DNA of 64,000 nt from Planctomycetota bacterium. Its GTDB lineage: Bacteria; Planctomycetota; PLA2; JAEUHO01. The stretch covers positions 288,001-352,000 of the forward strand of contig CBDCTJ010000001.1 in assembly GCA_965222115.1 (NCBI GenBank). The letters are read 5' to 3'. Both the position numbers and the translations under genes were made by a program. Below are positions 1-47,431 of this stretch, one piece after another (position 1 is the first letter of the stretch; the number at the start of each line of letters is the position of its first letter). Below the pieces are notes generated by a model, which was given only the letters and a program-made list of their open reading frames with translations, did not search any database and had not been told where the DNA came from.

Positions 1-729
1 CGCGAAGCCGAAACGTTCGCCGCAAGTGTCTATCGCGACTTTGCGGACTGCCGATTCCCCGCGCCACCGAGTCCAACCACGTCGTCGCCGAGCGCCCCGT
101 CGGTGGGATCGCCGTACAGCAATCATTATCCCAACACCGTCACGCGTCAACCAGCGCCGCGCACCGCCGCTGCACCGGGTCCCTTGTCTCGCGTGCTGCC
201 CACGCCCACGTCACGTCCCGGGATAACTCGACCCGGAACTCCAAGTGTCATTTCGCAACCGGTCGTGCCTAAGACACCGGCCCCCGTCGCATACCCACCG
301 GCCGTGACCGCGCCGCAGCCCGTCGTTCGTCAGCCGGCCGCGCCACGTGTCGCAGGCGGGGTTCAGTGGTACCACGACTGGAATCAGGCATCGGCCGCCG
401 CGCGCGCCATGGGCGGCGTGGTCTTCATGATGGCGTCGCGAGCAACATGTACGCAGTGCCACAAGGTGAAAGACACCGTGATTCCCCGCCACCAAAACAT
501 CCTTGGTGGTCGCTGCGTCGGCTTCGTTTTCGACATGAGTCAGAAAGTCGGCGGCGTGTACGGCGGCCGCTACGGCGCATTCCTACGTCGCAATCTTCCG
601 TATGCGCAGATCATGCCACTTGCCGGGTTTGTAACGCCTGACATGCAGTGGATCGATGGATTCTGGGGTATGCCGACGGATGCTGACTTTGCGCAGAAGG
701 CCCGAACGGCCGTGGCACGCGCGCGATAG
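1..729 (+). CDS. Thioredoxin-fold protein with CxxC (CTQC) after a Pro-rich linker; 5' end lies outside the window
   Basis: Frame is open from base 1. QWYHDWNQASAAARAMGGVVFMMASRATCTQCHKVK matches the Trx-like/Thioredoxin_7 pattern. Confidence 0.7.
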   Translation, partial: REAETFAASVYRDFADCRFPAPPSPTTSSPSAPSVGSPYSNHYPNTVTRQPAPRTAAAPGPLSRVLPTPTSRPGITRPGTPSVISQPVVPKTPAPVAYPPAVTAPQPVVRQPAAPRVAGGVQWYHDWNQASAAARAMGGVVFMMASRATCTQCHKVKDTVIPRHQNILGGRCVGFVFDMSQKVGGVYGGRYGAFLRRNLPYAQIMPLAGFVTPDMQWIDGFWGMPTDADFAQKARTAVARAR

Positions 730-32324: not shown

Positions 32325-33229
32325 TGGTCTCGCTCCCTCGAATCTCGCTCTAGCTCCGCCGCGCCACGCTGCAACATGAGGTCCAGCGCAGCAACAAGTC
32401 CAGGCCAATCCCTACCCACATCAAGCCCTTCGGCGGACACGCGCTTACCGAGTGCCACTCGTAACTTCTCGCAGGCGGCACGGAGAATTCGTGTCACCCG
32501 CGGTGGACTAATTCGCAAAGCCTTCGCAATCGCCCGTTGTGGAAGTCCATGGCGGTACTTCAACACGATCACTTGAAGTTGGCGTGTGGTCATTGCTTCC
32601 CACGCCGACGCCAACGCCTCCGAGACGATCCGCTCACTCTCGGCATCCATGAGCGCCGATACGTGCGACTTGGTTCGCGCCGGGACAGATTCATCGATTT
32701 CGCTGGTGCCACCGGCGCTATCGCGACGCCAGCGGTCTACAGAACGTCGCCAGGTAACCGTCGCGAGCCAGGCGAATAGAGAGCCTCGTCCGTCGTAGGT
32801 GCCCAGACGGGTACGCGCATTGCCGGATGTCGGCGGTACGGCAAGCGCGCCCCAGAGTTCACTCAGGAGTTCGCGCGTGTCACGGGACGTGCTACCGCGG
32901 CGACGCATGAGTGCTCGGAGTGGTTGGGTGTAGCGACGCTCCAAGCACTCCCATGCCCCGTCGGCGCGAACATCGCACGCGGTGGCCAAGAACATGTCCT
33001 CCGCATGTAGCGGTTCGCCTCGTGTTTGCATGGCGTGAGCGAAGGCCTCGTAGGGCAACGACACCTCGGGATAGGCGCGGCAACCGAGCGCGTAGGTACG
33101 TTGCTGCCAATGGGCACTGCCTTGGAGAGAACCGCCCCGGCCGGTGTCTAAAGGCCCTACGGTCGAACGAACACCTTGACGCGGTGGCTGATTGGCGCGG
33201 ACGTTGGCGGCAGAAAACCGGCGACTCAC
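32321..33229 (-). CDS. ECF sigma factor with an N-terminal extension (resembles Myxococcales family 1 sigma70); start uncertain
   Basis: LHAEDMFLATAC, YDGRGSLFAWL, and sigma4 GLPQRAIAKALRISPPRVTRIL. Confidence 0.85.
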   Translation of the reverse strand: MSRRFSAANVRANQPPRQGVRSTVGPLDTGRGGSLQGSAHWQQRTYALGCRAYPEVSLPYEAFAHAMQTRGEPLHAEDMFLATACDVRADGAWECLERRYTQPLRALMRRRGSTSRDTRELLSELWGALAVPPTSGNARTRLGTYDGRGSLFAWLATVTWRRSVDRWRRDSAGGTSEIDESVPARTKSHVSALMDAESERIVSEALASAWEAMTTRQLQVIVLKYRHGLPQRAIAKALRISPPRVTRILRAACEKLRVALGKRVSAEGLDVGRDWPGLVAALDLMLQRGAAELERDSRERDQ

Positions 33230-33363
33230 GACGGACTCCTCACGTCACCATGATGGCATGGACACCAAAGTTGACGGGGGCGATGTGGAAAATTAACCCC
33301 AAAAGAACAGGAGAATCGCCACCCGCCCGAAACTGCGCGTTCACAGCCTGTTACGCTGACTAC

Positions 33364-36273
33364 ATGAGGTCGAGGATTCTGCTCTTTGCGATGCTGATCG
33401 CTATGCAGGGCCTGCCCTACGCCCAAGCAAAAGATGAGAAGGCGGAGGGTGCCTCCAACGCTGCGAACGTGCTGGAGTTCGTCCGTCAGATTCGCGACAC
33501 CCTGGAGAAGAAGGAGGCGGATCGCGCGCGGATGATACTTATGGCGTCAAAGTGGGATGCGTGGATCGTGATCGAATCACTGGCGCGTGAACTAGCATGG
33601 GACGCCGCTAAATTCGCCGCCGACGTCTACAAAGACAAGGTTCCGGACGGGGCCGAGCTCGCGTCATACGTCGCATGGCGGCGACTGCATCCAATGGGAT
33701 CTACGCTCGACGGCGTATCGAAGGTGGTTTCGCTCCAAAACAAGGCGATGGATCCGAACGTTGCGCCCACGGAGAGGAAACGCTACGAGCGCTTGCTTGT
33801 TGCCGCAGAAGCCGCGGGGGCCATTCGATGGTTCAATCGAGAAAACACGCTGTTGATGCGCGCGCAAGCTATCGCACAGAAGAGCAAGCCGCAACTCCCC
33901 TATCTCCCCATCGTTGAACGCCGCCTGACGCTCGCGGAAGCGGTCGGCATGGACGCGAGCAAGATCTGGCGATACCTCGACTTCCTTTGTCGCGAATACT
34001 CATCGCGCCGCCAATTTGAAAAGGCAAACGCCTATGCGGCACGTTCGCTCAAGCTCGCGGCGGACGACGACCAACGATCCAAGTCGCTGAGACGGCTGGT
34101 GACGCTTGCGTCGAAGCGCGGCGAGTCCACGCAAGTAATTCGGTATGTTCGCGCGCTTCGTGCATTGGCAGCACGACATAAGAATGCGGTAGGCGTTGCT
34201 GCGGCCGACATTAAGTGGGCAGCGGCCGACGCGACACTCGGTCGACCCAATGCTGCCATGGCGCGACTCGAGCCCGCGCTCGAGATTCTAGAAGCCCACG
34301 GCACCAAAGAACATTTGCGTGGCGGGCACTTGCAGGCTGCAATGATCGCAATTACAAGTAATGATTTCGAGCGGACGCTCCGTCATGTTGCTCGTGCAGA
34401 TGCCGCGTCGAAGGGGCTCCCTTACAAGGACTACCGACTCCGACAATTTGAAGCGCACTCGTTGTGGGCGTTAGGCGAGCAGGATGAGGCTCGGCGGGTG
34501 CTGGACGAATTACTTGAACGAATCCCAGTCCACGAACGGGAGGAGCGCGCGAAAACAATCGCGATTCAAATCATGTACGCGAATCGCGCGACTGATGTAG
34601 TCGAGAATGAAGCCCGACTGGCCGAACTCAGAACCCTACGGGCTAACTCAACGTCGTCCTCGGCAGTGGCCCAACTCGCGTTCTGTGACATGAAGGTTGC
34701 GTTTCAAAAAGGGCTGCATGCTGAGGCAATTCGCGCAGGAAAGAGGGCAAGGCTGCACGCAGAGCGATCCGTGAATCCGCTGGATCAGATTCAAATCGAC
34801 TATCTCCTCGCGCGCGCCTATGTCGCCTTAGGTGAATACGCGCATGCAAGACGGCAAATCAAAGTGACGCTTCGCCTTCTCACAGAGTATTCAGAATCCA
34901 TGCCCGAGCAAATGGGCGTCACGTTTCGCGAACCACTACGCTCGATCCCGCAACTCGCCGCTGATCTCGCTAGCAAACAAGAAGACTATGAAGCGTTGTT
35001 TCAGATCGCGGAGCGCGCGTTCGCGGTCACACTTCGAGGCCGTGTTGGCGAAGAGGCAACAACGCAACAGGCGCTCTCGAAGGACGATCGAGACCGATTG
35101 GACGAGCTGAGGGCGAAGGAGTCGCGAGCCGCGAAACAGCTTCGTATCTCAGCGATTGCGGACGCAGGCAAGCCTATCGAGTCGCGCGCCGGTGCACCGA
35201 CGCCGCAGGTGGCGTGGGCCAACGTCCAGGATGAACTTGAGCGCCATCGAACGGCCATTCGAGCCAAGAACGTTATTGCGGGCCAGATTCTATATCCCGT
35301 GATCGATACATTCGCGAGTGCGCAAAAACGACTGACGGCAGCGGAAGCACTACTTGTGCTGATTCGCGGCACGTCTGTCGTCCACGGACTCGTCATTACG
35401 TCGCAGTCCGTTCGTTACATCGACCTGGGATCCGCTGATGAATTCGAAAGCGCGATCCGCGATCTTACATTGAGCGATCCGCTCTCGGACGAGAAGGCGG
35501 AAGTCGAGCGGTTGCACGGACTCGTTGCCAATCCAGTCAAGCTGCCTCCGTCAGTGCGGCACATCGCGGTCATGGCACAGGAAGGTTTTTCGCGTGTCCC
35601 CTACGCGGCAATCTGGCCGACACGCGAAGTACGCATGATCCCCTCGGCCACCGTAGATCGACTGCTTAATGAACGCGCTGACGACGGCAAGGGCATCTTG
35701 GCACTCGCAGATCCACGTGCGAAGGATGTGCCGAGACTTCCGGGCGCCAACCGCGAAGCACGAACCATCGGCACCACTGTATTGGTTGAAGACAAGGCTA
35801 CCGAACCATCTTTCAACCAAGCATTGCGAAGTGAGCCGTCGTGGCGATCGATTCACATTGCATGCCATGCGGCCATGAACAATGAACACCCGTTACGCTC
35901 GGCACTCATACTTGCGCCCACCAAAGACAGCGATGGCTTGTACACCGTTTCCGAGCTCCTTGGCGCACGCATCAATACAGACCTTGCCGTCCTTGCCGCG
36001 TGCTCCGCTGGGCAACGCAGTTGGATGGACTTCGAAGGCGCCATGACATTTACGCACGCCTTCTTTGTCGCCGGTGCAAAGCGTGTGTTGGTGAGCCTGT
36101 GGGATGTCAATGACGCTGCATCATCCGCGCTGTTGACCAAGTTCTATGAATTCTGGACACCCAAGACGTCTCCGGCAACAGCATTGACCAAAGCGCAGGC
36201 ATGGATGCGAACGAAAAAGAAGTGGGCTCACCCAGCATTCTGGGCAAGTTGGCAGCTTTGGGGAGCACGCTGA
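33364..36273 (+). CDS. Exported TPR-CHAT (caspase-like) protease, copy 1
   Basis: Signal peptide MRSRILLFAMLIAMQGLPYAQA, helical repeats, CHAT catalytic IHIACHA and LAACS, VSLWDVND, HPAFWASW. Confidence 0.9.
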   Translation: MRSRILLFAMLIAMQGLPYAQAKDEKAEGASNAANVLEFVRQIRDTLEKKEADRARMILMASKWDAWIVIESLARELAWDAAKFAADVYKDKVPDGAELASYVAWRRLHPMGSTLDGVSKVVSLQNKAMDPNVAPTERKRYERLLVAAEAAGAIRWFNRENTLLMRAQAIAQKSKPQLPYLPIVERRLTLAEAVGMDASKIWRYLDFLCREYSSRRQFEKANAYAARSLKLAADDDQRSKSLRRLVTLASKRGESTQVIRYVRALRALAARHKNAVGVAAADIKWAAADATLGRPNAAMARLEPALEILEAHGTKEHLRGGHLQAAMIAITSNDFERTLRHVARADAASKGLPYKDYRLRQFEAHSLWALGEQDEARRVLDELLERIPVHEREERAKTIAIQIMYANRATDVVENEARLAELRTLRANSTSSSAVAQLAFCDMKVAFQKGLHAEAIRAGKRARLHAERSVNPLDQIQIDYLLARAYVALGEYAHARRQIKVTLRLLTEYSESMPEQMGVTFREPLRSIPQLAADLASKQEDYEALFQIAERAFAVTLRGRVGEEATTQQALSKDDRDRLDELRAKESRAAKQLRISAIADAGKPIESRAGAPTPQVAWANVQDELERHRTAIRAKNVIAGQILYPVIDTFASAQKRLTAAEALLVLIRGTSVVHGLVITSQSVRYIDLGSADEFESAIRDLTLSDPLSDEKAEVERLHGLVANPVKLPPSVRHIAVMAQEGFSRVPYAAIWPTREVRMIPSATVDRLLNERADDGKGILALADPRAKDVPRLPGANREARTIGTTVLVEDKATEPSFNQALRSEPSWRSIHIACHAAMNNEHPLRSALILAPTKDSDGLYTVSELLGARINTDLAVLAACSAGQRSWMDFEGAMTFTHAFFVAGAKRVLVSLWDVNDAASSALLTKFYEFWTPKTSPATALTKAQAWMRTKKKWAHPAFWASWQLWGAR

Positions 36274-36356
36274 TTCGGCTTGGTTCAAGGCGCATAACGT
36301 GTGGGACCGTGTCACGCCGTAGTTGCAATCATTCCAGTCGTGGAAATACTGATGTC

Positions 36357-39251
36357 ATGCGAGCGAAACCTCGAATGTGTTCACGCGTGATTCTATTGGC
36401 AATGTCTCTGCTAGCCATTTCATCACTGATGCCAGTGTTCGCCGAAGAACCGCTCCTCGCAAAGCCCGTTCAAACGTACGCCAAGACCATTGCAGAAGCC
36501 GTTGACGAGGGAGACGACGCGAAGCTGGATGCACTCGTAGCCAAGAACACGCATGACCCGTGGCTCGTTGTAGAAGCACTATTGGCAAAGGACGATAACA
36601 AGGCCGCACACCAACTTGCAGTTCGATTGCCGGCATCGCCGGACACACGCCAACTCGCTTCCTACATCAAGAAGTGTCAAGGCGCCGCCCGTGTAACGAT
36701 CGATCGAGTCTCTTCCCTTCTCCGTGATCTTCGCAATCTGGAGCAAGATGAAGCCAAAAATGACCTCGATTTCGATGCGACGGCCCGGTTGGCCATTGCC
36801 GAGCGGGCGCAGGCACTCGGTTGGCTCTCGTTCGCAAGCAGGATTCTCGATCTGAGCCACGCGACGTCAAAACAGGACGCTGCATTCACGCTCAAGTGCC
36901 TTCAGTTGTGGATTGCGGTCGAGCAACATCGGGAACAACCCGATCGTGAAGTGCGAGTGCGCGGAGCGATTGCCAAAGTTCTTTCACAACAGCAGCGTCC
37001 GCGCGAAGCGCTGGCTTATGCCGAACCGGCCCTGCGGCTTAAGTTGCCGTCGAAACTGAGGCACTATGCGCTTGTGATGAATGTTTCGTTACTCGTGACG
37101 TTAGGCGAGAACGCGCGCGTGCTGGCGCTGGTACCCGAGTTGCGCAAACAAACTACCGCACAGAAGAACGCGATTGGCACAGCGATCGTGGATCTGCAAT
37201 GGGCCGCCGCCAACGCGAATTTAGGCCGACCCGCAGCGGCGCTTGCTCGTCTCGATCATGCCCTACGAGTGATCGAAGCTGCGGGCCCGATCCACCTACA
37301 ACAGTCTGCTCACATGCAAGCTGCCAATATCGCGATCATTCACAGAGATCCCGAGCGGGCGACAAAGCACGTCCAACGTGCGCGCGCAAAGGGTCAACTC
37401 AACAAGATCGTTAGGCTGCATTTGGATCGACTGGAGGCAGATGCGCTGTTTATGATGGGGCGCATTGACGATTCAATGCGTGTCACACGAGGGTCAGTTC
37501 AACAAATTCCCAAGAACGACGTGCGGTCGCAGACACCACCCCGCACTCGACTCATGTCGCTCCATCTCGCGAAGCGAGACGTTGACGCGGCAAAAATTGA
37601 GCTGGACTGGCTGACCAACGTGCTTCAGTCCGGCGCGCTCGATGCAAAGTTGCGCCGCGAAGTTGTGCGAAACATCTGCTATTTTTATGTCTTCACCGGC
37701 GCCTACGAACGTGCACTGACAATAGCCGAGCGCGAACTTGCACGAGAGACAGACTACGATGACCCTGCCCATCGACGAGGGCTTCGGTACCACGCGTCTC
37801 AGGCGGCACTTCAATTGGGCGCAACCGACAAGGCGCTGCAACACGTAGACGCGTTGATCGCGCTCACGGTCGATACCACCAATGAAATGCCCGAACGCAC
37901 ACTGAAAGAGTCTCGCGCTAGTTGGGTCGGTTTGGCGACCATGGCCATCGATGCGGCTATGGCCGCCAAGGATGCAGGTCGAGTTGTCTCCTATCTTGAA
38001 CTCATACGCGCCGTTTCGACACGGGCTCGAATTGGCGTGGAGCATGTGGAGTCACGCACGCTACGCAAAGAGGATAAGGAGACGCTCGACAAACTTCGTG
38101 ACGCGGAACGCATGACCATCGCCGCGTTTCAGAAGTTGAACGACGACAAATCGAAGCTCGCCACTACGAAGCGAGTGGAATTGGTGAAGCGGCTATCATC
38201 GATTCGCGAATCACTCGCCGAGCGGAGAGAGGCTATTCGGGCGCAGCGAGTCGTTGCTGGACACATACTCTACCCCTCCGTTGACTCGCTCCGAGATGTA
38301 CAACTGCGATTAGCAGCCGATGAGGCCTTTATCTACTTCGCGTTTGGACGGGTACGAGCTGTGGCGCTGCTTGTCACAGCCAAAGCGACAAAACTAATGA
38401 ACCTTGGCATGCGTTCTGACGTTGCTTCGGTACTGGAAGGGCTCGCGATTGGTGATTCCATGTCATCTTCGGAAGAGGATCTGGAAATACTGCGAACGGC
38501 GATCGGCAAGCCTTTGGCGCTACCGAAGCACATTGTGCGCGTGTCAATCTCCGGCGAAGCCGCATTCACCCGGGTGCCGTACGCACTGCTTTGGCCTACG
38601 CGTGAGATTGTCATGGTCTCCTCCGCCACCATTCAACGCCTGCTCCAGACGGAGTCGAGTTCGGGTAAAGACGTGCTGGCCGTAGCCGATCCAGCGGCGC
38701 CGAACGTCTCGCGGCTTGTTGGCGCACGGGCCACTGCAACATCCATTGCCACGCGCGTACTTGCCGACAAGGACGCGACGGAGGAAGCGATCGATATCGC
38801 GCTCAAGCGAAAGGAACGTTGGCGAAGCGTACACTTTGCGTGTCATGCAGCGATGGATGAAGCGAAGCCCCTGCAATCAGCGTTGCTCGTATCACCGTCC
38901 AAGCACAACGACGGCTTTATGACCGTCTTGGAGCTCCTGGACGCCTCGGTTCAATCTGAGTTGGTCGTGCTGGCAGCTTGTTCTACGGGGACTCGCAATG
39001 CGCGCGATGTGGACGGGACCCTCACATTCGTGAATGCATTCTTCGTTTCGGGCGCAACCCGCGTCATTGTTAGTCTCTGGGACGTCAATGACGAAGCTAC
39101 GGCGGCGCTCTTCAAGAAGTTCTACGCCCTGTGGAAGCCGGCGACGTCACCTGGCGCAGCGCTAGCGAAGGCGCAAGCATGGATGCGAACTCAAAAGAAG
39201 TGGAAGCATCCGGCGCACTGGGCAGGGTGGCAGATATGGGGACCGCGGTAA
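36357..39251 (+). CDS. Exported TPR-CHAT (caspase-like) protease, copy 2
   Basis: Signal peptide ending PVFA, VHFACHA, LAACS, VSLWDVND, HPAHWAGW; paralogue of the upstream gene. Confidence 0.9.
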   Translation: MRAKPRMCSRVILLAMSLLAISSLMPVFAEEPLLAKPVQTYAKTIAEAVDEGDDAKLDALVAKNTHDPWLVVEALLAKDDNKAAHQLAVRLPASPDTRQLASYIKKCQGAARVTIDRVSSLLRDLRNLEQDEAKNDLDFDATARLAIAERAQALGWLSFASRILDLSHATSKQDAAFTLKCLQLWIAVEQHREQPDREVRVRGAIAKVLSQQQRPREALAYAEPALRLKLPSKLRHYALVMNVSLLVTLGENARVLALVPELRKQTTAQKNAIGTAIVDLQWAAANANLGRPAAALARLDHALRVIEAAGPIHLQQSAHMQAANIAIIHRDPERATKHVQRARAKGQLNKIVRLHLDRLEADALFMMGRIDDSMRVTRGSVQQIPKNDVRSQTPPRTRLMSLHLAKRDVDAAKIELDWLTNVLQSGALDAKLRREVVRNICYFYVFTGAYERALTIAERELARETDYDDPAHRRGLRYHASQAALQLGATDKALQHVDALIALTVDTTNEMPERTLKESRASWVGLATMAIDAAMAAKDAGRVVSYLELIRAVSTRARIGVEHVESRTLRKEDKETLDKLRDAERMTIAAFQKLNDDKSKLATTKRVELVKRLSSIRESLAERREAIRAQRVVAGHILYPSVDSLRDVQLRLAADEAFIYFAFGRVRAVALLVTAKATKLMNLGMRSDVASVLEGLAIGDSMSSSEEDLEILRTAIGKPLALPKHIVRVSISGEAAFTRVPYALLWPTREIVMVSSATIQRLLQTESSSGKDVLAVADPAAPNVSRLVGARATATSIATRVLADKDATEEAIDIALKRKERWRSVHFACHAAMDEAKPLQSALLVSPSKHNDGFMTVLELLDASVQSELVVLAACSTGTRNARDVDGTLTFVNAFFVSGATRVIVSLWDVNDEATAALFKKFYALWKPATSPGAALAKAQAWMRTQKKWKHPAHWAGWQIWGPR

Positions 39252-41468: not shown

Positions 41469-43478
41469 CTAACGGAGGGAGTTGAGCGCGGATTGCGTTA
41501 GGGCACGAATGTAGGGATCACTGGATCTCACATTCTTCTCGAGTACCTGCATTGCTGCCGCCGGACGCTCCTTCAGTGGCTTGAGCACATTGGCCAATGC
41601 GATGGCAGCGTAGCCGCGCCCCTGAAACGACGAGTCGCCCAGAAGTTTCACCAATGGTTCGATGGCGGGTCGTCCAAGCGCCTGCAGCCGGGCGACGATG
41701 CGATTGTTGGTAATGCGGTGGGCATTGCCATCTCGCAGACGCTTTGCAAGAGCGGCGGGATCGTCGCCCTCCCACGGGACGTCAGTGCCGGCGCGCTTGA
41801 TTGCCTTCGCTTCTTCCGCCGTGACGGCGTCTCGCGCGTCGGATAGGCCCTTCCAGGTGAGTCCCGAGGCGCGCAACCCCGAGCTGGACAACCCCCGAAC
41901 GTAATCGCTCTTGTGCTGGAGCCCGCGTACGAGTGCCATCTTCGCAGCGAGTGGGTGACTCTTTGTGGCCCCCATGACTTTACCCAAGGCGTATGTTGCG
42001 TACCCACGGCCGAGGTAATTCTCGTCGTTCAAAACCTTGAGCAGTGCGTGAAGTGCAGGTGCGCCTGTCTTTACGAGTTTCTCGACGAGCACATTGTTGT
42101 TGGACACATGTCGATTGCCGTCGCGCAGTTGTTGAGCGAGTACGACGGCATCATGGGGCGGATCATTGCTGGGCGCGCCGCGATCGGGACTTTCCCTGTC
42201 TCCCGAAGACTGGGGTCCGGACGACGTTGGGCCCGCCGCGCCACCGTTCGGTGCCGAATTCGGCGCATTAATCTTCCATTCCTTCTGGTCATAACGTGGG
42301 CGAAGCTTCCTGTAGATCATGCACGACGTGTTGTGCTCCTGCTCAATGTGATGCGTTCCAATGTTGCCCTCGTACTCCGATCCCCCGAGTTCCGGATTGG
42401 GATAGGGCATCGTTTCGTGAACCGCAGCAATCTTCGCGCGCATGGCGAGGCGACTCTGCCGCCGTTCGTGCCAGATCCACATCCAGTGAAAACGCGCCCA
42501 GTCGCGTTCGCCCGCAAACCACGAGGCCACGCCCAAGGAAAAGTGAATGTCGGTCGCTCGTGGATTCGCGTCGTGACGATGGACAACACTGCGACCCAAC
42601 GCTATTGCTGCCTTGTGCTTCTTCTGATGTACCAACAAATACAAAGATTCCGCATCGAGGTCTGCCGCGAGGATGCTGCGAATCGCCTCATCACCTTCGC
42701 GAACTCGCTTGATTGAATTACCGAGCGCTTCCCATTGCTCAGTTGCGCGCTGCATTCGCATGCGTGCCCGAGCGATCTCCGCGCGTTCATTCACACGTGT
42801 GTCTTTCCCAATCGCATTCAGCGTTGCCATCGCGTCGTCATAAGACGCGAGTCGTTCATACAAGCGCGCCAGCACAAGCCTTTCCGCGACGGACGCACCT
42901 TCCGCCATGCCTCGCTTCTTGACTCGCTCTTCCTCTTGGGTCCACGCCGCGAATTTAACGTGTTTCCTCAGAAGTGAAGCCAGCCACTCGCGTGCTTGGT
43001 TTTTGTCTGCATAGATGGCGGACTCATCCAAGTACGTACCATCGGGCGCAAATGCCGCCAAGTAGGCATAGGGGTTCTTGGTCTTGTCTTTGGTGAACGC
43101 GCTTGCTTCTGCGTTTCCACCCCGTCCGTTGCCACTACGATTGAAGTAGTACGGCACAAATCGGCTGTTGACGAGATGGATGAACGGCAAATCGGCGAAG
43201 GCACCTGCCCTCTGGGGTTCGGCACCCGGTCACCACATGCCGTCGGTTGCGCACTTGGCACCGGCATCGTCGATGCCAAAGGAAACGCCTTTGATGAGCA
43301 AGATTCGGTTCTTTGACTTTGCTTCCTTGAGCGCATCGGAAAACTGATGAGGCAGTTTCCACTGAATAGCCGCGCGATCCCGTGCCCAGCCCGGATGCGC
43401 CTCCTTGGCGTCTACGGGGCTCGAGGACCAGATGAATATCGAAATGCAGGTCGCAGATATCCAACCGAACGAACGCAT
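41469..43478 (-). CDS. Probable exported selenoprotein (669 aa, Sec83): thioredoxin-like domain, TPR-like region and duplicated HEAT region
   Basis: GGAGG RBS and signal peptide. ORFs 43230-43493 and 41469-43190 are in the same frame and separated only by TGA 43230-43232. Readthrough gives KCATDGMW-U-PGAEPQRAGAFADLPFIHLVNSRFVPYYF. Confidence 0.75.
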
Positions 43479-43606
43479 GGCTGCCTCCATCATTTTCGCT
43501 TAAGACGACACAACTCTCTACGTCATGCGTAACTTGCCAGTCATGATCGCCAAAATTATGCTGATGTGTCACGGATCAATCACCCCCACGCACCGACAGA
43601 ATCACC

Positions 43607-44476: not shown

Positions 44477-45058
44477 ATGCCCCTCAACGAACACGATCCC
44501 GTCTCGCGCCTGTTGGAGCGTATGGCCGAAGGTGATGCGGCAGCGGGCCACGAACTCTATCCGCAATTGTTTCGCGAACTGCATGGTATGGCCCACCGCC
44601 TAATGCGCGGCGAGCGCCATGGCCATACGCTCCAGACAACAGCCCTTGTCAACGAAGCGTGGTTGCGGTTCAAACCCGAGGCATCCACGCCGGAGACGCG
44701 TGCTCACTTCATGTTTCTGGCGGCACGCGCCATGCGCCAAGTGCTCGTGGATCACGCGCGAAAGCGAAACGCCAAGAAACGCGATGGCGGAGAACGTCAT
44801 GCACTCTTTGACGATGTGCTTGCGCGGTGGGAAGGCGACCCCACCGAGCTGCTCACGCTGGACGCCGCGCTCGACAGACTGGGTGAACGAGACGAAGCGC
44901 TGCGTCGCTTGGTGGAGCTTCGCTACTACGCCGGTTGCACGCTAGAAGAAGCCGGCAACTTGATGGGCATGACGGTGCGGCAAGTGCACCGTCGCTGGAC
45001 ATTCGCACGTGGGTGGTTGCGTCGTGAACTCGACAAAGGGCTGCCGGATGAGCAGTGA
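44477..45058 (+). CDS. ECF sigma factor of the kinase-associated (ECF43/TIGR02999-like) type
   Basis: HTLQTTALVNEAWLR, AARAMRQVLVDHAR, VELRYYAG; overlaps the kinase start. Confidence 0.92.
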   Translation: MPLNEHDPVSRLLERMAEGDAAAGHELYPQLFRELHGMAHRLMRGERHGHTLQTTALVNEAWLRFKPEASTPETRAHFMFLAARAMRQVLVDHARKRNAKKRDGGERHALFDDVLARWEGDPTELLTLDAALDRLGERDEALRRLVELRYYAGCTLEEAGNLMGMTVRQVHRRWTFARGWLRRELDKGLPDEQ

Positions 45059-47431
45059 CTGGAAACGACTCGAGTCCATCGTCGCTCGGGCGTCGGAACT
45101 TGATCCCGATTGTCGCACAGAGTTCGTTGAGGAAGAGACGCAAGGCGACGACGCGCTGCGCGACGAAGCACTCGCGATTCTCGAAGCCGGTCTCGCCAAC
45201 GATGCGTTCCTAGACCCAATCATTGAGCGTGCCGAGTTGGAGCCCGGTACCCAGGTTGGACCGTTCACAATACAACGACCGATTGCGAGCGGCGGCATGG
45301 GCGTGGTGTATGAGGCCACGCAGACTTCGCCTTCACGAGTCGTCGCGCTCAAGACCATGCGCGCCGACCTCATCTCATCGATGGCACGCGCACGATTTCA
45401 GCATGAGATTGAAGTGCTTGGCACACTCACCCATCCCGGCATCGCGGAAATTTACCAGGCGGGTGTGCACGCATCCGTTCCATGGTTTGCGATGGAGTAC
45501 ATCCCCGACGCACAGCCCTTGGTTCGTTTCTGCCGCGAGCAAAAGAAGTCCCGTGCAGAACGCGTAGCATTTGTTGCCGATGTGGCCGACGCCATTCACC
45601 ACGGTCATGTACGGGGTGTGATGCATCGCGATTTGAAACCCGACAACCTACTTGTCGGCCGCGATGGCCGTGTGCGCGTAATCGACTTTGGCGTTGCGGG
45701 TGTCACCGATCCCGATCAGCGTCTGAACACATTGCAAACCAGCACGGGGAGCATTGTGGGCACGCTGGCCTACATGAGCCCAGAACAGGCCCGCGGCGAG
45801 TCGGGCGACGCGCGTAGTGATCTCTACAGCCTCGGCGTTGTGCTCTACGAGTTGTTGACGGGAGCGCACCCCATCGCGCTGAGTGCCAAAGACTTCTTAT
45901 CGTCTGCAAGACGTATTGTTGAGGAGCCGCCAACACGACCGTCCACGCACGACAAGACCTTGCGCGGTGATCTCGACGCCATACTCATGCACGCACTTCA
46001 AAAGGACCCCGATCTCCGCTATCCGTCAGCGAACGCGTTTGCGAACGACCTCCGTGCCTATTTGGATCGCCGCCCCATTTCCGCATCGGTTCCTTCTGTC
46101 GTGGCGCGCGCCCGCTCGTTTGTTCGTCGCAATCGTATTCTCGTGGGCTCACTCGCGTCCGTGACCGCGGCCCTCCTAATTGCGACATGCGTGAGTATCG
46201 CGTTTGGTGTTCGTTCGAAACGCGCCGAGTCCAAAGCCGTATCGAGTGAGCATGCAGCGCGCGCAGAGCGAGACCGCGCCGAGGAGCTGTTGTCCCAGTC
46301 CCTCAAGCAAAATCTCGATGCCACATTCGGTGCCGTTCCTAAGATCCATAAACTTCCAGGTGGCGCCGAAACCGCGGAGCGCGTCATAAAGACCACGATT
46401 GACAATCTAGAAGCGCTGAACAAGACGTCGAACGGCGACGAGCGGGTGCAATTGGCACTTGCAGAGGCCCATGCCAAGTTGGGTGACATTCAAGGCAATC
46501 AGTACTACGCGCATCTTAGCGATGCCAGAGGCGCGGCCGCGACCTATGAGCGCTCGCTTTTCCCTGCTACGTACACTGAAGAACAAGGCTGACTCCGATT
46601 CAGAGACGATCCGTCACGCGCGATTGCTTGAGATCAGCGTGCTTCGAAAATCTACGGAACTACGCCCCGGCCCCCTTTCCGATACGGCGCGTAACCGACT
46701 AGCCACTGCGTTGACGCTCGCTTCGGCGCTGACCAAAGAACCCGAGACGGCACCTCAAGCCGAAGGGCAGCTCGCGCTCATCCAGCTTCGCTTATCGCAT
46801 GATCGACTGATGCACGACAAGTACAACGAAGCGGCTGCGCTGGCGAAGAGTGCCATCGCCATCTACGAGAAACGTCTCGCGTCGTCCAAGGATCGGACGT
46901 GGAGTGTTGAGCTGCTTGCCGGTGCACTGGGTCGACTGGGACGCGTGCAGACCCATCAAGGCGAACTCGACGACGCCACGTCGCAACATACGACCGCGCG
47001 CTATGTCTTTGATTGAATCGCTGTCGCCCGATCAACAGCAACGCCTCGACAAACGCCGTCTCAATCTCTGGATGAAACGCGGATGGCTCGCACGAAAACA
47101 AGGCGATTTCGACGACGCGCAAGATTTCATCGGCCGCGCCAAAGCGCTCGCCATCAAGCGCTGTAAGGCCGATCCCAAGAATCCCGGCCACCGAATCGGC
47201 CTCTGCACAGCGCTCAGCGAGTGGATTATCACGGCCGAACTCGAATACGGCCCTACCGACGGAGGTATGCCGCCGAACCAAGCGCGAGAGCGCGCTCGTG
47301 AGGCAGCCGACATTGTTGAATCACTAGCACCCAAGGGCTCGCGCATGATCGCCATGTTCGTAAAGCCCTTTCGCGCGTACGCGGATGGCAAGCGCAAAGC
47401 AGGCACATTGACGGGGGCCTTTGGGGGATAG
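45048..47431 (+). pseudogene. Hanks-type Ser/Thr kinase with TM and TPR tail, with two apparent frameshifts near 46560 and 46990 (pseudogene or sequence error)
   Basis: GGMGVVY, HRDLKPDN, IDFG, GTLAYMSPEQ; the TPR-like tail continues in ORFs 46459-47016 and 46850-47431. Confidence 0.8.

Follow-up and report, generated by a model that had tools for sequence, protein, structure and literature searches.

A probable exported planctomycete selenoprotein with thioredoxin-fold, TPR-like and HEAT parts, encoded across an in-frame UGA

Thioredoxin-fold selenoproteins with a SECIS element inside the open reading frame are the commonest kind of bacterial selenoprotein, and the kind itself is not new. 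SELENON is defined by the motif SCUG. CnoX-type proteins, such as that of PDB entry 3qdn, are cytoplasmic and Sec-free, and AGR2 is a single-Cys member of the DsbH/DsbD-gamma/UAS fold group. As regards the recoding signal, the bSECIS model of Zhang and Gladyshev, as set out in section 5 of PMC13188914, allows a loop of 3-9 nt, a stem of 4-16 bp and a spacing of 16-37 nt, and that section also asks for a G in the first two loop positions and an energy of at most -7.5 kcal/mol. Here, a locus is described from the window, that is, the whole 64,000-nucleotide stretch of planctomycete DNA that was analysed, in which one minus-strand gene, running from 43478 or 43493 down to 41469, is highly likely to encode an exported selenoprotein of 669-674 aa, whose UGA would be recoded with a downstream hairpin as the SECIS element (Table 1).

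Table 1. Features of the locus, in window positions
Feature	Coordinates	Strand	Basis or remark
Start region, three in-frame ATGs (43493, 43490, 43478)	43476..43493	-	ORF listing and translation
Shine-Dalgarno-like GGAGG	43484..43488	-	5-nt spacer to ATG 43478; direct reading
Probable signal peptide MRSFGWISATCISIFIWSSSPVDA	43407..43478	-	Inspection of the translation
Thioredoxin-fold domain, residues ~40-182 from ATG 43493	42948..43376	-	Profile, AF2, Foldseek
Cys81 codon, 7 residues before Sec	43251..43253	-	Candidate selenenylsulfide partner
In-frame TGA, Sec88 (Sec83 from ATG 43478)	43230..43232	-	Attacking-Cys position of the thioredoxin motif; homologue alignments
SECIS-like hairpin GAGGGC-AGGU-GCCUUC	43197..43212	-	6 bp, 4-nt loop, G second in loop
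All-helical TPR-like domain, residues 186-402	42288..42938	-	AF2 helices pLDDT >90; weak Pfam TPR_19, E 0.0044
Low-complexity disordered linker, residues 411-444	42162..42263	-	pLDDT <50
HEAT-repeat module 1, residues ~449-563	41805..42149	-	Pfam HEAT and HEAT_2 below cut-offs; AF2
HEAT-repeat module 2, residues ~579-673	41475..41759	-	Pfam HEAT_2 at 581-670, E 7.2e-5, under cut-off; AF2, Foldseek
True stop codon TAG	41469..41471	-	ORF listing and translation

The in-frame TGA and its recurrence across the family

Two listed open reading frames of the minus strand make up the locus, one of 87 aa (43493..43230) terminating in TGA 43232-43230 and one of 573 aa (41469..43190) with a TTG start; since their starts lie 303 bases apart, they are in the same frame. 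When 43493..41469 was translated with TGA read as U, the sole internal stop was U88, numbered from ATG 43493, and both halves of the gene were intact across 674 codons. The preliminary description had reported this single frame with only that TGA in between, and the peptide around U reads exactly as quoted there. Judging from the GGAGG spacing, the likeliest start is ATG 43478, the third of the three ATGs, which would give the 669 aa stated earlier, with Sec at position 83. The ribosome-binding site and signal peptide ascribed to the upstream part were both recovered, the former lying 5 nt from this ATG and the latter being signal-peptide-like by inspection; a similar hydrophobic stretch, also by inspection, opens most homologous ORFs, and the AF2 model has a low-confidence N-terminal helix (residues 3-23) in this region. 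The TTG at 43190 is preceded by no comparable Shine-Dalgarno motif, as had been noted.

Because six of the 20 open frames of at least 350 codons in the window terminate in TGA, this codon is an ordinary stop in the genome, and standard gene calling, as anticipated in the preliminary description, yields the 87-aa and 573-aa pieces. Both facts would suit a plain stop, either between two genes (an exported 87-aa peptide and a TTG-started 573-aa protein) or in a recently broken pseudogene. However, such an explanation is extremely improbable. More than 50 distinct genes, taken from independent assemblies, have a TGA at this very column, a repetition that neither an error nor a nonsense mutation of recent date would produce. 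Sequence conservation and a single predicted thioredoxin fold continue across the codon, and the second protein would begin mid-domain, at a TTG devoid of a Shine-Dalgarno motif. In all ten first homologues, the TGA was found at one column. Among 38 homologous stretches of related genomes, 32 have it at the same aligned position, where the sequence is conserved to the left and right and includes invariant residues; of the six exceptions, three are truncated on one or the other side of the column or continue in a shifted frame, two have Tyr and one has a gap. Exactly one TGA was present in 61 of the 73 matches from a sample of 401 genomes of the phylum. Additionally, a DNA pattern containing the TGA was run against 185,579 species genomes and matched 70 stretches. 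True family members account for 39, of which 34 are titled as Planctomycetota lineages and five simply as 'bacterium', no other phylum being named; the remaining 31 are chance matches in other phyla.

The same break is visible among public proteins. When the top 150 of the 400 profile matches were counted by hand, about 101 were seen to begin just after the Sec column, while 33 end just before it, most of them on the Trp that precedes Sec, 15 span it, and one odd upstream reading fits no class. The residues that the 15 spanning proteins place at this column are C (4), G (3), D (2), S (2) and Y (1), with a gap in three. A search for homologues with either TGA or Cys at this position had been suggested beforehand, and both forms exist, since besides the 32 TGA-bearing stretches four full-length relatives (P0010, P0011, P0067 and P0119) carry Cys; a Cys-codon (WCP...) pattern search of genome contigs found no relative, Cys forms being rare. 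The planctomycete family is large and systematically mis-annotated, most public entries being halves divided at the Sec position, and TGA 43232-43230 is very probably the Sec codon of one long exported redox protein.

The putative SECIS element and the selenocysteine machinery

The hairpin of the window begins 17 nt after the UGA, with 23 nt from the UGA to the loop, and its energy of -7.7 kcal/mol satisfies the bSECIS model narrowly (limit -7.5 kcal/mol), as do its other properties without this reservation. A family-wide comparison with the model, in line with the check downstream of the UGA that had been proposed earlier, revealed a conserved hairpin of bSECIS type. Of 55 distinct members, 38 fit its strict form at the real UGA and 17 fail it; among 9094 in-frame positions used as controls, 885 (9.7%) fit. 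Loops of the family hairpins are mostly GGUC, CGGGUC or AGGU. In the main pairing register, 70.2% of cells pair, and the covariation of 0.242, compared with 0.171 in shuffles, was reached by none of 500 shuffles; at pair 22-37 of this register, 22 rows have AU and 15 have CG. A second register (columns 17-26 with 31-40), which is the one used by the window hairpin, did not rise above shuffles family-wide. For the 48-nt stretch of the window taken alone, the fold z was 0.00, with 93 of 200 shuffles at least as stable, and the Rfam search near the UGA returned no SECIS or other family, the best match (E 0.44) being unrelated. From the family-wide comparison, it is strongly supported that this in-coding stem-loop, 17 nt downstream of the UGA, may act as a SECIS element.

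The two SECIS hairpins proposed in the preliminary description were not the right ones, and the conserved hairpin at 43212-43197 overlaps both. The one at 43209-43186 (columns 24-30 with 41-47) has 39.2% of cells paired across the 55 homologues, below shuffled controls, and the CCC/GGG hairpin at 43217-43208 has a stem of 3 bp, under the model minimum of 4.

The genome was also checked for the Sec machinery, with an outcome that is favourable in part. The tRNA-Sec (71.6 bits, ARAGORN call SeC(tca)), selA (480.7 bits) and selB (346.6 bits) are over cut-offs and intact, whereas selD (G000:C1:654443-655201) is frame-broken in the assembly; it scores 150.6 bits, where the best matches in 51 relatives reach 232-395 bits, and five stops occur in it in addition to its own Sec codon. 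If this damage were real, Sec could not be made, and the family would be one of selenoproteins of which this representative, with selD dead, is translated only up to the UGA into a short exported peptide. Such a loss would account for the alignment of the assembled selD with the SelD of a relative, which reaches only 39% identity, is interrupted by stops and drifts between frames. However, a contig end is 0.4-1.2 kb away from selD, and the first TGA of the gene is the expected Sec codon. Public-run contigs from one study (records 3 and 7, run X1) match it with 0 substitutions and 6-10 gaps per 300-450 nt, which is the signature of indel errors, so that the frame breaks are probably attributable to assembly rather than to decay; three runs of that study contain 23-37% of sampled selD words, and no piece covers the whole stretch. 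The intact selA, selB and tRNA-Sec, together with the unbroken halves of the window gene over 674 codons, also argue against loss, which is regarded as very unlikely, and selD is probably broken by indel errors at the contig end. Furthermore, selD is present in all six relatives carrying the family, and none of the nine relatives without a selD match has a match to the thioredoxin domain. Recoding of UGA 43232-43230 to selenocysteine by the SelB/tRNA-Sec system is strongly supported overall.

The thioredoxin-like domain, the repeats and their possible chemistry

A profile of the N-terminal domain matches PDB 2kuc_A (E 0.0024) and aligns Sec on the first Cys of its WCGPC motif, which bears out the earlier proposal that the stop occupies the site of the attacking cysteine. 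The AF2 pLDDT of this domain is mostly 86-98, and in the models, which show a thioredoxin fold, the active residue opens the helix that follows strand 1, so the single continuous domain across the TGA that had been predicted is seen both in the modelled structure and in the homologues, conserved on either side of the codon. Foldseek with this domain retrieved 3f9u, 2dlx, DsbD-gamma and DsbH at TM 0.5-0.66 and probability 0.99-1.0, the matches by PDB entry being 3f9u, 2dlx, 7tkv, 1uc7 and 2ju5, with AGR2 also among them. At the level of families, PF03190 matches five of ten relatives (best E 2.2e-5); the window's own thioredoxin domain matched no Pfam family at E<=10, and NCBIfam release 20 gave no match to the N-terminal domain at E<=1. 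Taken together, the structural models strongly support a thioredoxin fold of the DsbH/DsbD-gamma/UAS/AGR2 group, with Sec at the predicted attacking-Cys position.

The remainder of the protein agrees with the Trx-TPR-2xHEAT architecture first suggested, since in the AF2 model the thioredoxin fold is followed by TPR-like helices and then by a pair of HEAT modules. The TPR-like domain is conserved in 34 aligned homologues, and the C-terminal HEAT modules recur in six sub-clade relatives, one in each of L049, L089, L073 and L085 and two in each of L111 and L077. Searched against Pfam and NCBIfam, the read-through protein had no matches other than HEAT, TPR and CpcF-type repeats below threshold. 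With Foldseek, the HEAT region matches PP2A-A and alphaRep, and the whole 674-aa model retrieved mostly HEAT/ARM repeat proteins and was little informative.

After Sec-dependent export, the protein would work in the periplasm as a selenol-based oxidoreductase. In such a cycle, Sec88 may attack a client in oxidised form, be it a disulfide, a sulfenic acid or a peroxide. The resulting adduct could be resolved by Cys81 (C-x6-U, kept in the sub-clade) or by an external thiol, and clients or partners might dock on the TPR-like domain and on both HEAT modules. Alternatively, the protein could be a true selenoprotein with a lone selenol, acting as a peroxidase or as a sulfenic-acid reductase via an outside thiol, or with a Sec that serves as a metal or metalloid ligand, the repeats being only scaffold. 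The active-site motif W-U-P-G-A-E leaves room for this, given that a CxxC/UxxC dithiol motif is absent (the motif is U-P-G-A), that none of the 55 members has a Cys at +1 to +5 and that 23 of them have none within nine residues before or five after Sec. AGR2, a single-Cys protein, is among the structural matches, and spanning relatives tolerate D, G, S or Y at the Sec column, so that the fold would also have non-redox uses. A lone selenol is nevertheless disfavoured by the Cys found at -7 in 16 of the 17 members of the WUPGAEP sub-clade, to which the window protein belongs, and at -2 in the remaining one (counted from alignment rows), and no metal-binding motif was seen that would point to a ligand; this alternative is considered unlikely. 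A U-P-x-x motif with an upstream C-x6-U candidate partner, and the TPR/HEAT fusion, are unusual for a thioredoxin fold.

Relation to selenoprotein N and to other described systems

A resemblance to the Sec region of selenoprotein N had been pointed out in the preliminary description, and it proved real but remote. When the family profile was aligned by hhalign with that of planctomycete proteins bearing SCUG or SCCG, the probability was 97.9% (E 4.7e-13), with Sec columns aligned, and a block ..LRAG.LS....N..F.. is common to both. This SCUG/SCCG set comprises L064, L071 and P0162-P0173, with SCUG in L064 and L071 only, as taken from the 38-stretch alignment. Its tie to eukaryotic SELENON consists solely of a language-model score, the nearest ESM-Atlas cluster of the SCUG/SCCG protein P0172 being 'Selenoprotein N' (score 0.91, 98% Eukaryota), and a protein homology search with the SCUG protein of L071 returned planctomycete hypothetical proteins only and no named eukaryotic SelenoN. 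The window protein reads G-M-W-U-P-G, and its Sec domain directly follows the signal peptide, whereas some 260-300 residues precede that domain in the SCUG/SCCG proteins. Because both the SCUG motif and the N-terminal SelenoN domain are absent, orthology with SelenoN is ruled out, and the window domain is better described as a putative distant paralogue, a remote homologue, of the Sec domain of planctomycete SelenoN-like proteins. This homology ties the family to a human disease protein with poorly understood chemistry.

A broader and tentative proposal, possible rather than probable, is that the W-U-P and S-C-U-G families form a phylum-wide exported Sec-thioredoxin superfamily, with up to eight paralogues per genome, which would be the prokaryotic sister or source of SELENON, the window protein being a selenium-dependent periplasmic 'chaperedoxin' whose Sec domain, tethered to TPR and HEAT scaffolds, would capture clients and reduce their oxidised cysteines. 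If true, redox chemistry of the envelope would here be based on Sec in a way that has no described counterpart, and SELENON chemistry would gain a tractable model in bacteria.

The W-U-P family appears to be uncatalogued among selenoproteins. None of the 119 families and subfamilies, in the accessible part of the May 2026 selenoprotein inventory, has this motif or domain set, and no family-related terms occur in the deep-Sep main text (PMC12013277). No description of the family was found in the literature on bacterial SELENON homologues or planctomycete selenoproteins, in which S9 Table of PMC4807772, listing candidates from two planctomycetes, might include a member. Once annotated correctly, the family would enter planctomycete selenoproteomes as a widespread selenoprotein that is exported. 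As to genomic context, the methyltransferase, ECF sigma factor and ABC-F neighbour of the window gene are not recurrent beside homologues; Ser/Thr kinases recur there, weakly.

In comparison with the bacterial SECIS, the window hairpin agrees with all four criteria of the model of Zhang and Gladyshev as given in PMC13188914, although its energy only narrowly passes and its relatives use two registers and several loop types. Like catalogued bacterial selenoproteins, the protein combines a redox fold, a probable active-site Sec and a putative SECIS within the ORF with the existence of Cys-form relatives. It shares with SELENON and the planctomycete SCUG/SCCG relatives a homologous Sec-bearing thioredoxin-like domain, but has MWUP instead of SCUG and lacks their preceding domain of about 260 aa, and those proteins are without the TPR-like and HEAT C-terminal parts. 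The Thioredoxin_7, Thioredox_DsbH (PF03190), DsbD-gamma, UAS and AGR2 domains have the same fold and are also exported, as is predicted here; the window domain differs from them in having Sec in place of Cys, in lacking the second Cys of CxxC, in bearing Cys81 on an insert of 7 residues and in its fusion to TPR-like and HEAT parts, the latter being two modules. CnoX/YbbN-type thioredoxin-TPR proteins (PDB 3qdn) likewise have TPR-like helices placed after a thioredoxin domain, and the Foldseek match to 3qdn_B (E 2.5e-3 over 362 columns) is weak, at TM 0.13/0.28; there is no sequence relation between the two, and the HEAT modules belong to the window protein only.

Probable read-through of the in-frame UGA and conservation of the codon

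The 87-aa and 573-aa ORFs share one frame, and translation of 43493..41469 with TGA read as U gave 674 residues in which U88 is the sole internal stop. This confirmed the preliminary description, in which the two ORFs had been joined across a single TGA, and the peptide around U was identical to that quoted there. The 669-aa product with Sec83 claimed in the same description was also obtained, from the third in-frame ATG at 43478, which lies behind GGAGG (43488-43484) with a spacer of 5 nt. The stretch MRSFGWISATCISIFIWSSSPVDA after this ATG looks, by inspection only, like a signal peptide, and the protein would thus be exported. Of the 20 open frames of at least 350 codons in the window, 6 terminate at TGA; the codon thus serves as a normal stop here, and a reassigned genetic code is excluded as the explanation.

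A six-frame search matched the read-through protein in 13 of 61 related genomes. One TGA lies inside each match whose coverage of the N-terminal domain spans the Sec column; the match lacking TGA, in genome G035, begins just past that column at a contig end. It had been proposed that homologues should carry TGA or Cys at position 83 with conservation on both sides, and TGA was indeed found at a single column in all 10 aligned homologues, flanked by invariant residues in the motif G-x-W-U-P-(G/A)-(A/G)-(E/D)-x-x-R-A. This W-U-P family was detected by profile search in 45 of 401 genomes of the phylum and, among the 73 matches listed, 61 contained exactly one TGA and 12 none. When 38 stretches were aligned with hmmalign, TGA occupied the Sec column in 32, while the other six comprised one beginning past the column at the edge of its contig, one stopping short of the column, one continuing out of frame, one with a gap and two with Tyr. 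The latter (loci L057 and L058), together with the protein P0065, are Sec-free and read W-Y-x-S-C, with Tyr at the Sec column and Cys three residues on, which may represent a different active-site solution within the same fold. Paralogue expansion was observed in G357 (8 matches), G258 (5) and G030 (5), two copies being 1.5 kb apart on G357:C92.

Searching 185,579 species, each represented by one genome, with a DNA pattern that includes the TGA retrieved 70 stretches. An HMM recognised 39 as true family members. Their record titles name Planctomycetota lineages in 34 cases (Mariniblastus, Gemmatales, Fimbriiglobus and Brocadiia among them), only 'bacterium' in five and no other phylum, indicating that the family belongs to the Planctomycetota. 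When 1.84 billion representative proteins from public sets were searched with a profile, 400 hits were obtained; among the best 150, counted by hand, about 101 begin (residue 1-2) just past the Sec column and 33 end just before it, at most 2 residues from their own C-terminus and mostly on the Trp directly preceding Sec. Annotation therefore splits the gene into halves, as had been anticipated. One of the 150 was an odd upstream reading, and the 15 that span the column read Cys (P0010, P0011, P0067, P0119), Gly (3), Asp (2), Ser (2), Tyr (1) or a gap (3), so that Cys forms, although they exist, are uncommon. No relative was retrieved from genome contigs with a Cys-codon pattern. The locus is very probably a real, mis-annotated selenoprotein gene.

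Features of the gene, its predicted protein and related loci
Feature	Position	Strand	Remarks
87-aa ORF	43493..43230	minus	terminates at TGA 43232-43230
573-aa ORF	43190..41469	minus	TTG start
SECIS-like hairpin	43212-43197	minus	GAGGGC-AGGU-GCCUUC; 6 bp, 4-nt loop, -7.7 kcal/mol
N-terminal helix	residues 3-23		AlphaFold2 model, low confidence
Thioredoxin fold	residues about 45-180		AlphaFold2 model
All-helical TPR-like domain	residues 186-402		AlphaFold2 model
Disordered linker	residues 411-444		AlphaFold2 model
HEAT-like module, first	residues 449-568		AlphaFold2 model
HEAT-like module, second	residues 579-673		AlphaFold2 model
Ser/Thr protein kinase gene	45009-46592	plus
Two CHAT-domain genes	32911-39251	plus	adjoining, slightly overlapping
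selD	about 1501-2259 of L019 (G000:C1:652943-655637)		own genome
selA continuation	G000:C7:4-1329		own genome
SCUG gene	L064:607-1995	plus	long N-terminal domain
SCUG gene	L071:1417-2577	minus	long N-terminal domain

Selenocysteine machinery and the SECIS-like hairpin

The preliminary description had called for selA, selB, selC and selD, and the genome contains tRNA-Sec (71.6 bits, cut-off 47; SeC with anticodon tca by ARAGORN), selA (480.7 bits, divided over the contigs C1, at its end, and C7, at its start) and selB (346.6 bits), whereas selD was found frame-broken in the assembly. The latter (150.6 bits) adjoins selA 0.4-1.2 kb from the C1 end and contains 5 TGA and 1 TAA. Alignment with the SelD of a relative identified the first TGA as selD's own Sec codon; in the remainder the frames drift, with 39% identity. 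The contig break runs through the selA-selD pair, and numerous frame breaks interrupt the assembled selD. One study provided three public runs whose contigs showed 0 substitutions and 6-10 gaps per 300-450 nt against this stretch (records 3 and 7 of run X1); the bases agree, with many 1-2-nt indels. The damage thus probably reflects indel errors at an unpolished contig end rather than gene decay, a reading only probable because no public-run piece covers the whole stretch. The best selD match per relative reached 232-395 bits (51 relatives), and exactly one in-frame TGA was present in 45 of these relatives, or 45 of the 52 genomes with a match; selD being itself a selenoprotein gene there, Sec use is the rule in this order. 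All six relatives carrying the W-U-P family have selD, and the Trx domain was matched in none of the nine relatives lacking a selD match. This co-occurrence is consistent, though weak, since a further 45 selD-positive relatives lack the family.

The bacterial SECIS consensus, as outlined in PMC13188914, comprises a loop of 3-9 nt with G in its first two positions, a stem of 4-16 bp, a spacing of 16-37 nt and an energy of at most -7.5 kcal/mol. In every homologue a stem-loop begins 16-20 nt past the first base of UGA, and in the window hairpin the UGA-to-loop distance is 23 nt. A strict, bulge-free version of this model was satisfied at the real UGA by 38 of 55 distinct members, versus 885 of 9094 (9.7%) in-frame control positions of the same genes, with loops mostly of the types CGGGUC, GGUC, AGGU, CGUGUC and CGUGAC. 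The main register, which pairs columns 20-27 with 32-39 of a gap-free alignment of 55 rows, had 70.2% of cells paired and 26 cells altered on both sides, with 22 rows showing AU and 15 showing CG at pair 22-37. Its covariation score was 0.242 versus 0.171 +/- 0.011 for shuffles and was reached by 0 of 500 shuffles, bearing in mind that related sequences may exceed shuffles even without structure. Counting against a SECIS element, the window's own 48 nt folded no better than shuffles (z = 0.00), the second register, used by the window's own hairpin, was not above shuffles across the family, and Rfam gave no match for this region. Two other hairpins had been put forward as SECIS candidates; neither is the conserved element, which lies at 43212-43197, since that at 43209-43186 had 39.2% of cells paired, below shuffles, and the CCC/GGG hairpin has only 3 bp.

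Domain architecture, active site and gene surroundings

The AlphaFold2 model built with 34 homologues (pLDDT 86.5, pTM 0.62) predicts a thioredoxin fold, a TPR-like domain and two HEAT-like modules, in agreement with the Trx-TPR-2xHEAT architecture proposed earlier. Window-type C-terminal HEAT modules also occur in six relatives of its sub-clade, W-U-P-G-A-E-P (one module in L049, L089, L073 and L085, two in L111 and L077), so this architecture is conserved and no accident of one genome. The whole 674-aa model matches HEAT/ARM proteins and weakly resembles the thioredoxin-TPR protein 3qdn. The isolated Trx domain (pLDDT 82.7) gave structural matches at TM 0.5-0.66, among them 3f9u (an exported cytochrome-c-biogenesis-related domain), 2dlx (UAS domain), 7tkv (Thioredox_DsbH domain), AGR2, DsbD-gamma and DsbH. 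Of 10 relatives, 5 matched Pfam Thioredox_DsbH (PF03190), the best of them with E 2.2e-5, and the window's own sequence did not. The family profile matched the 'putative disulphide-isomerase' 2kuc_A (E 0.0024) in an alignment that places Sec at the first Cys of the WCGPC motif. At the end of the TPR-like domain, the window sub-clade conserves M-P-Y-x-N-x-E-L-G/D (window 42360-42420, residues about 358-378), and the other clade carries a C-terminal R-I-G-Y-M-G-x-x-N-P-D-L.

Cys was found within five residues after Sec in none of 55 members, which rules out a UxxC protein. A Cys at -7 (C-A-T-x-G-x-W-U) is shared by 16 of the 17 members of the window sub-clade; the remaining one has Cys at -2, as do some members of the larger W-U-P-A-A-E-V clade. 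Cys81, Sec88 and Cys391 are the only Cys/Sec residues of the mature window protein, and Cys81 and Sec88 would form a selenenylsulfide couple. The main rival is a lone-selenol chemistry instead of this couple; in the family as a whole, Cys is absent from both the 9 residues preceding and the 5 following Sec in 23 of 55 members. The catalytic mechanism, whether couple or lone selenol, is a proposal.

The gene stands alone, with a convergent ABC-F ATPase gene downstream and divergent SAM methyltransferase, ECF sigma factor and Ser/Thr kinase genes upstream. Near homologues only the kinase recurs, within a few kb at 9 of 54 loci (L073, L074, L127, L053, L085, L135, L070, L122 and L049); given 45 kinase-domain matches in the 4.55 Mb of this genome, the association is a weak lead whose enrichment is modest and unproven. 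Elsewhere in the window, two genes of about 1000-1100 aa each both encode a C-terminal CHAT (caspase-like) domain.

Relationship to SelenoN and to known selenoproteins

The preliminary description had likened the protein to SelenoN, a resemblance that held as remote homology and failed as orthology. Two weaker family matches, L064 and L071, read D-E-S-C-U-G-S-G-K-x-L-R-A-G-P-L-S, and natural Cys forms (P0162, P0164, P0172, P0173) read S-C-C-G. These planctomycete SCUG/SCCG genes are probably bacterial SelenoN relatives, because the ESM-Atlas cluster closest to P0172 is the eukaryotic 'Selenoprotein N' (score 0.91, 197 of 256 features shared, 98% Eukaryota). The SCUG genes have a SECIS-like hairpin, GAGAGCG-GGUC-CGCUCUC. 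The SCUG/SCCG profile matched the window family profile with 97.9% probability (E 4.7e-13, 122 columns) and aligned Sec columns; this comparison involves the planctomycete proteins, the tie to eukaryotic SELENON running through the Atlas cluster of P0172. However, the window protein has neither the SCUG motif nor the 260-300-residue domain found ahead of the Sec domain in SCUG/SCCG proteins, and is therefore not a SelenoN orthologue.

No NCBIfam release 20 model matches the Trx domain, and no description of the W-U-P family was found in the literature searched, which covered main texts. Among the 119 prokaryotic selenoprotein families and subfamilies in Table 1 of a review from May 2026, judged from the table text, none has the W-U-P motif or this domain set. 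The W-U-P family thus appears to be new; it is large, confined to Planctomycetota in the genomes scanned and of a familiar selenoprotein kind, and it is unusual in its active-site motif, its scaffold fusions and its remote tie to SelenoN.
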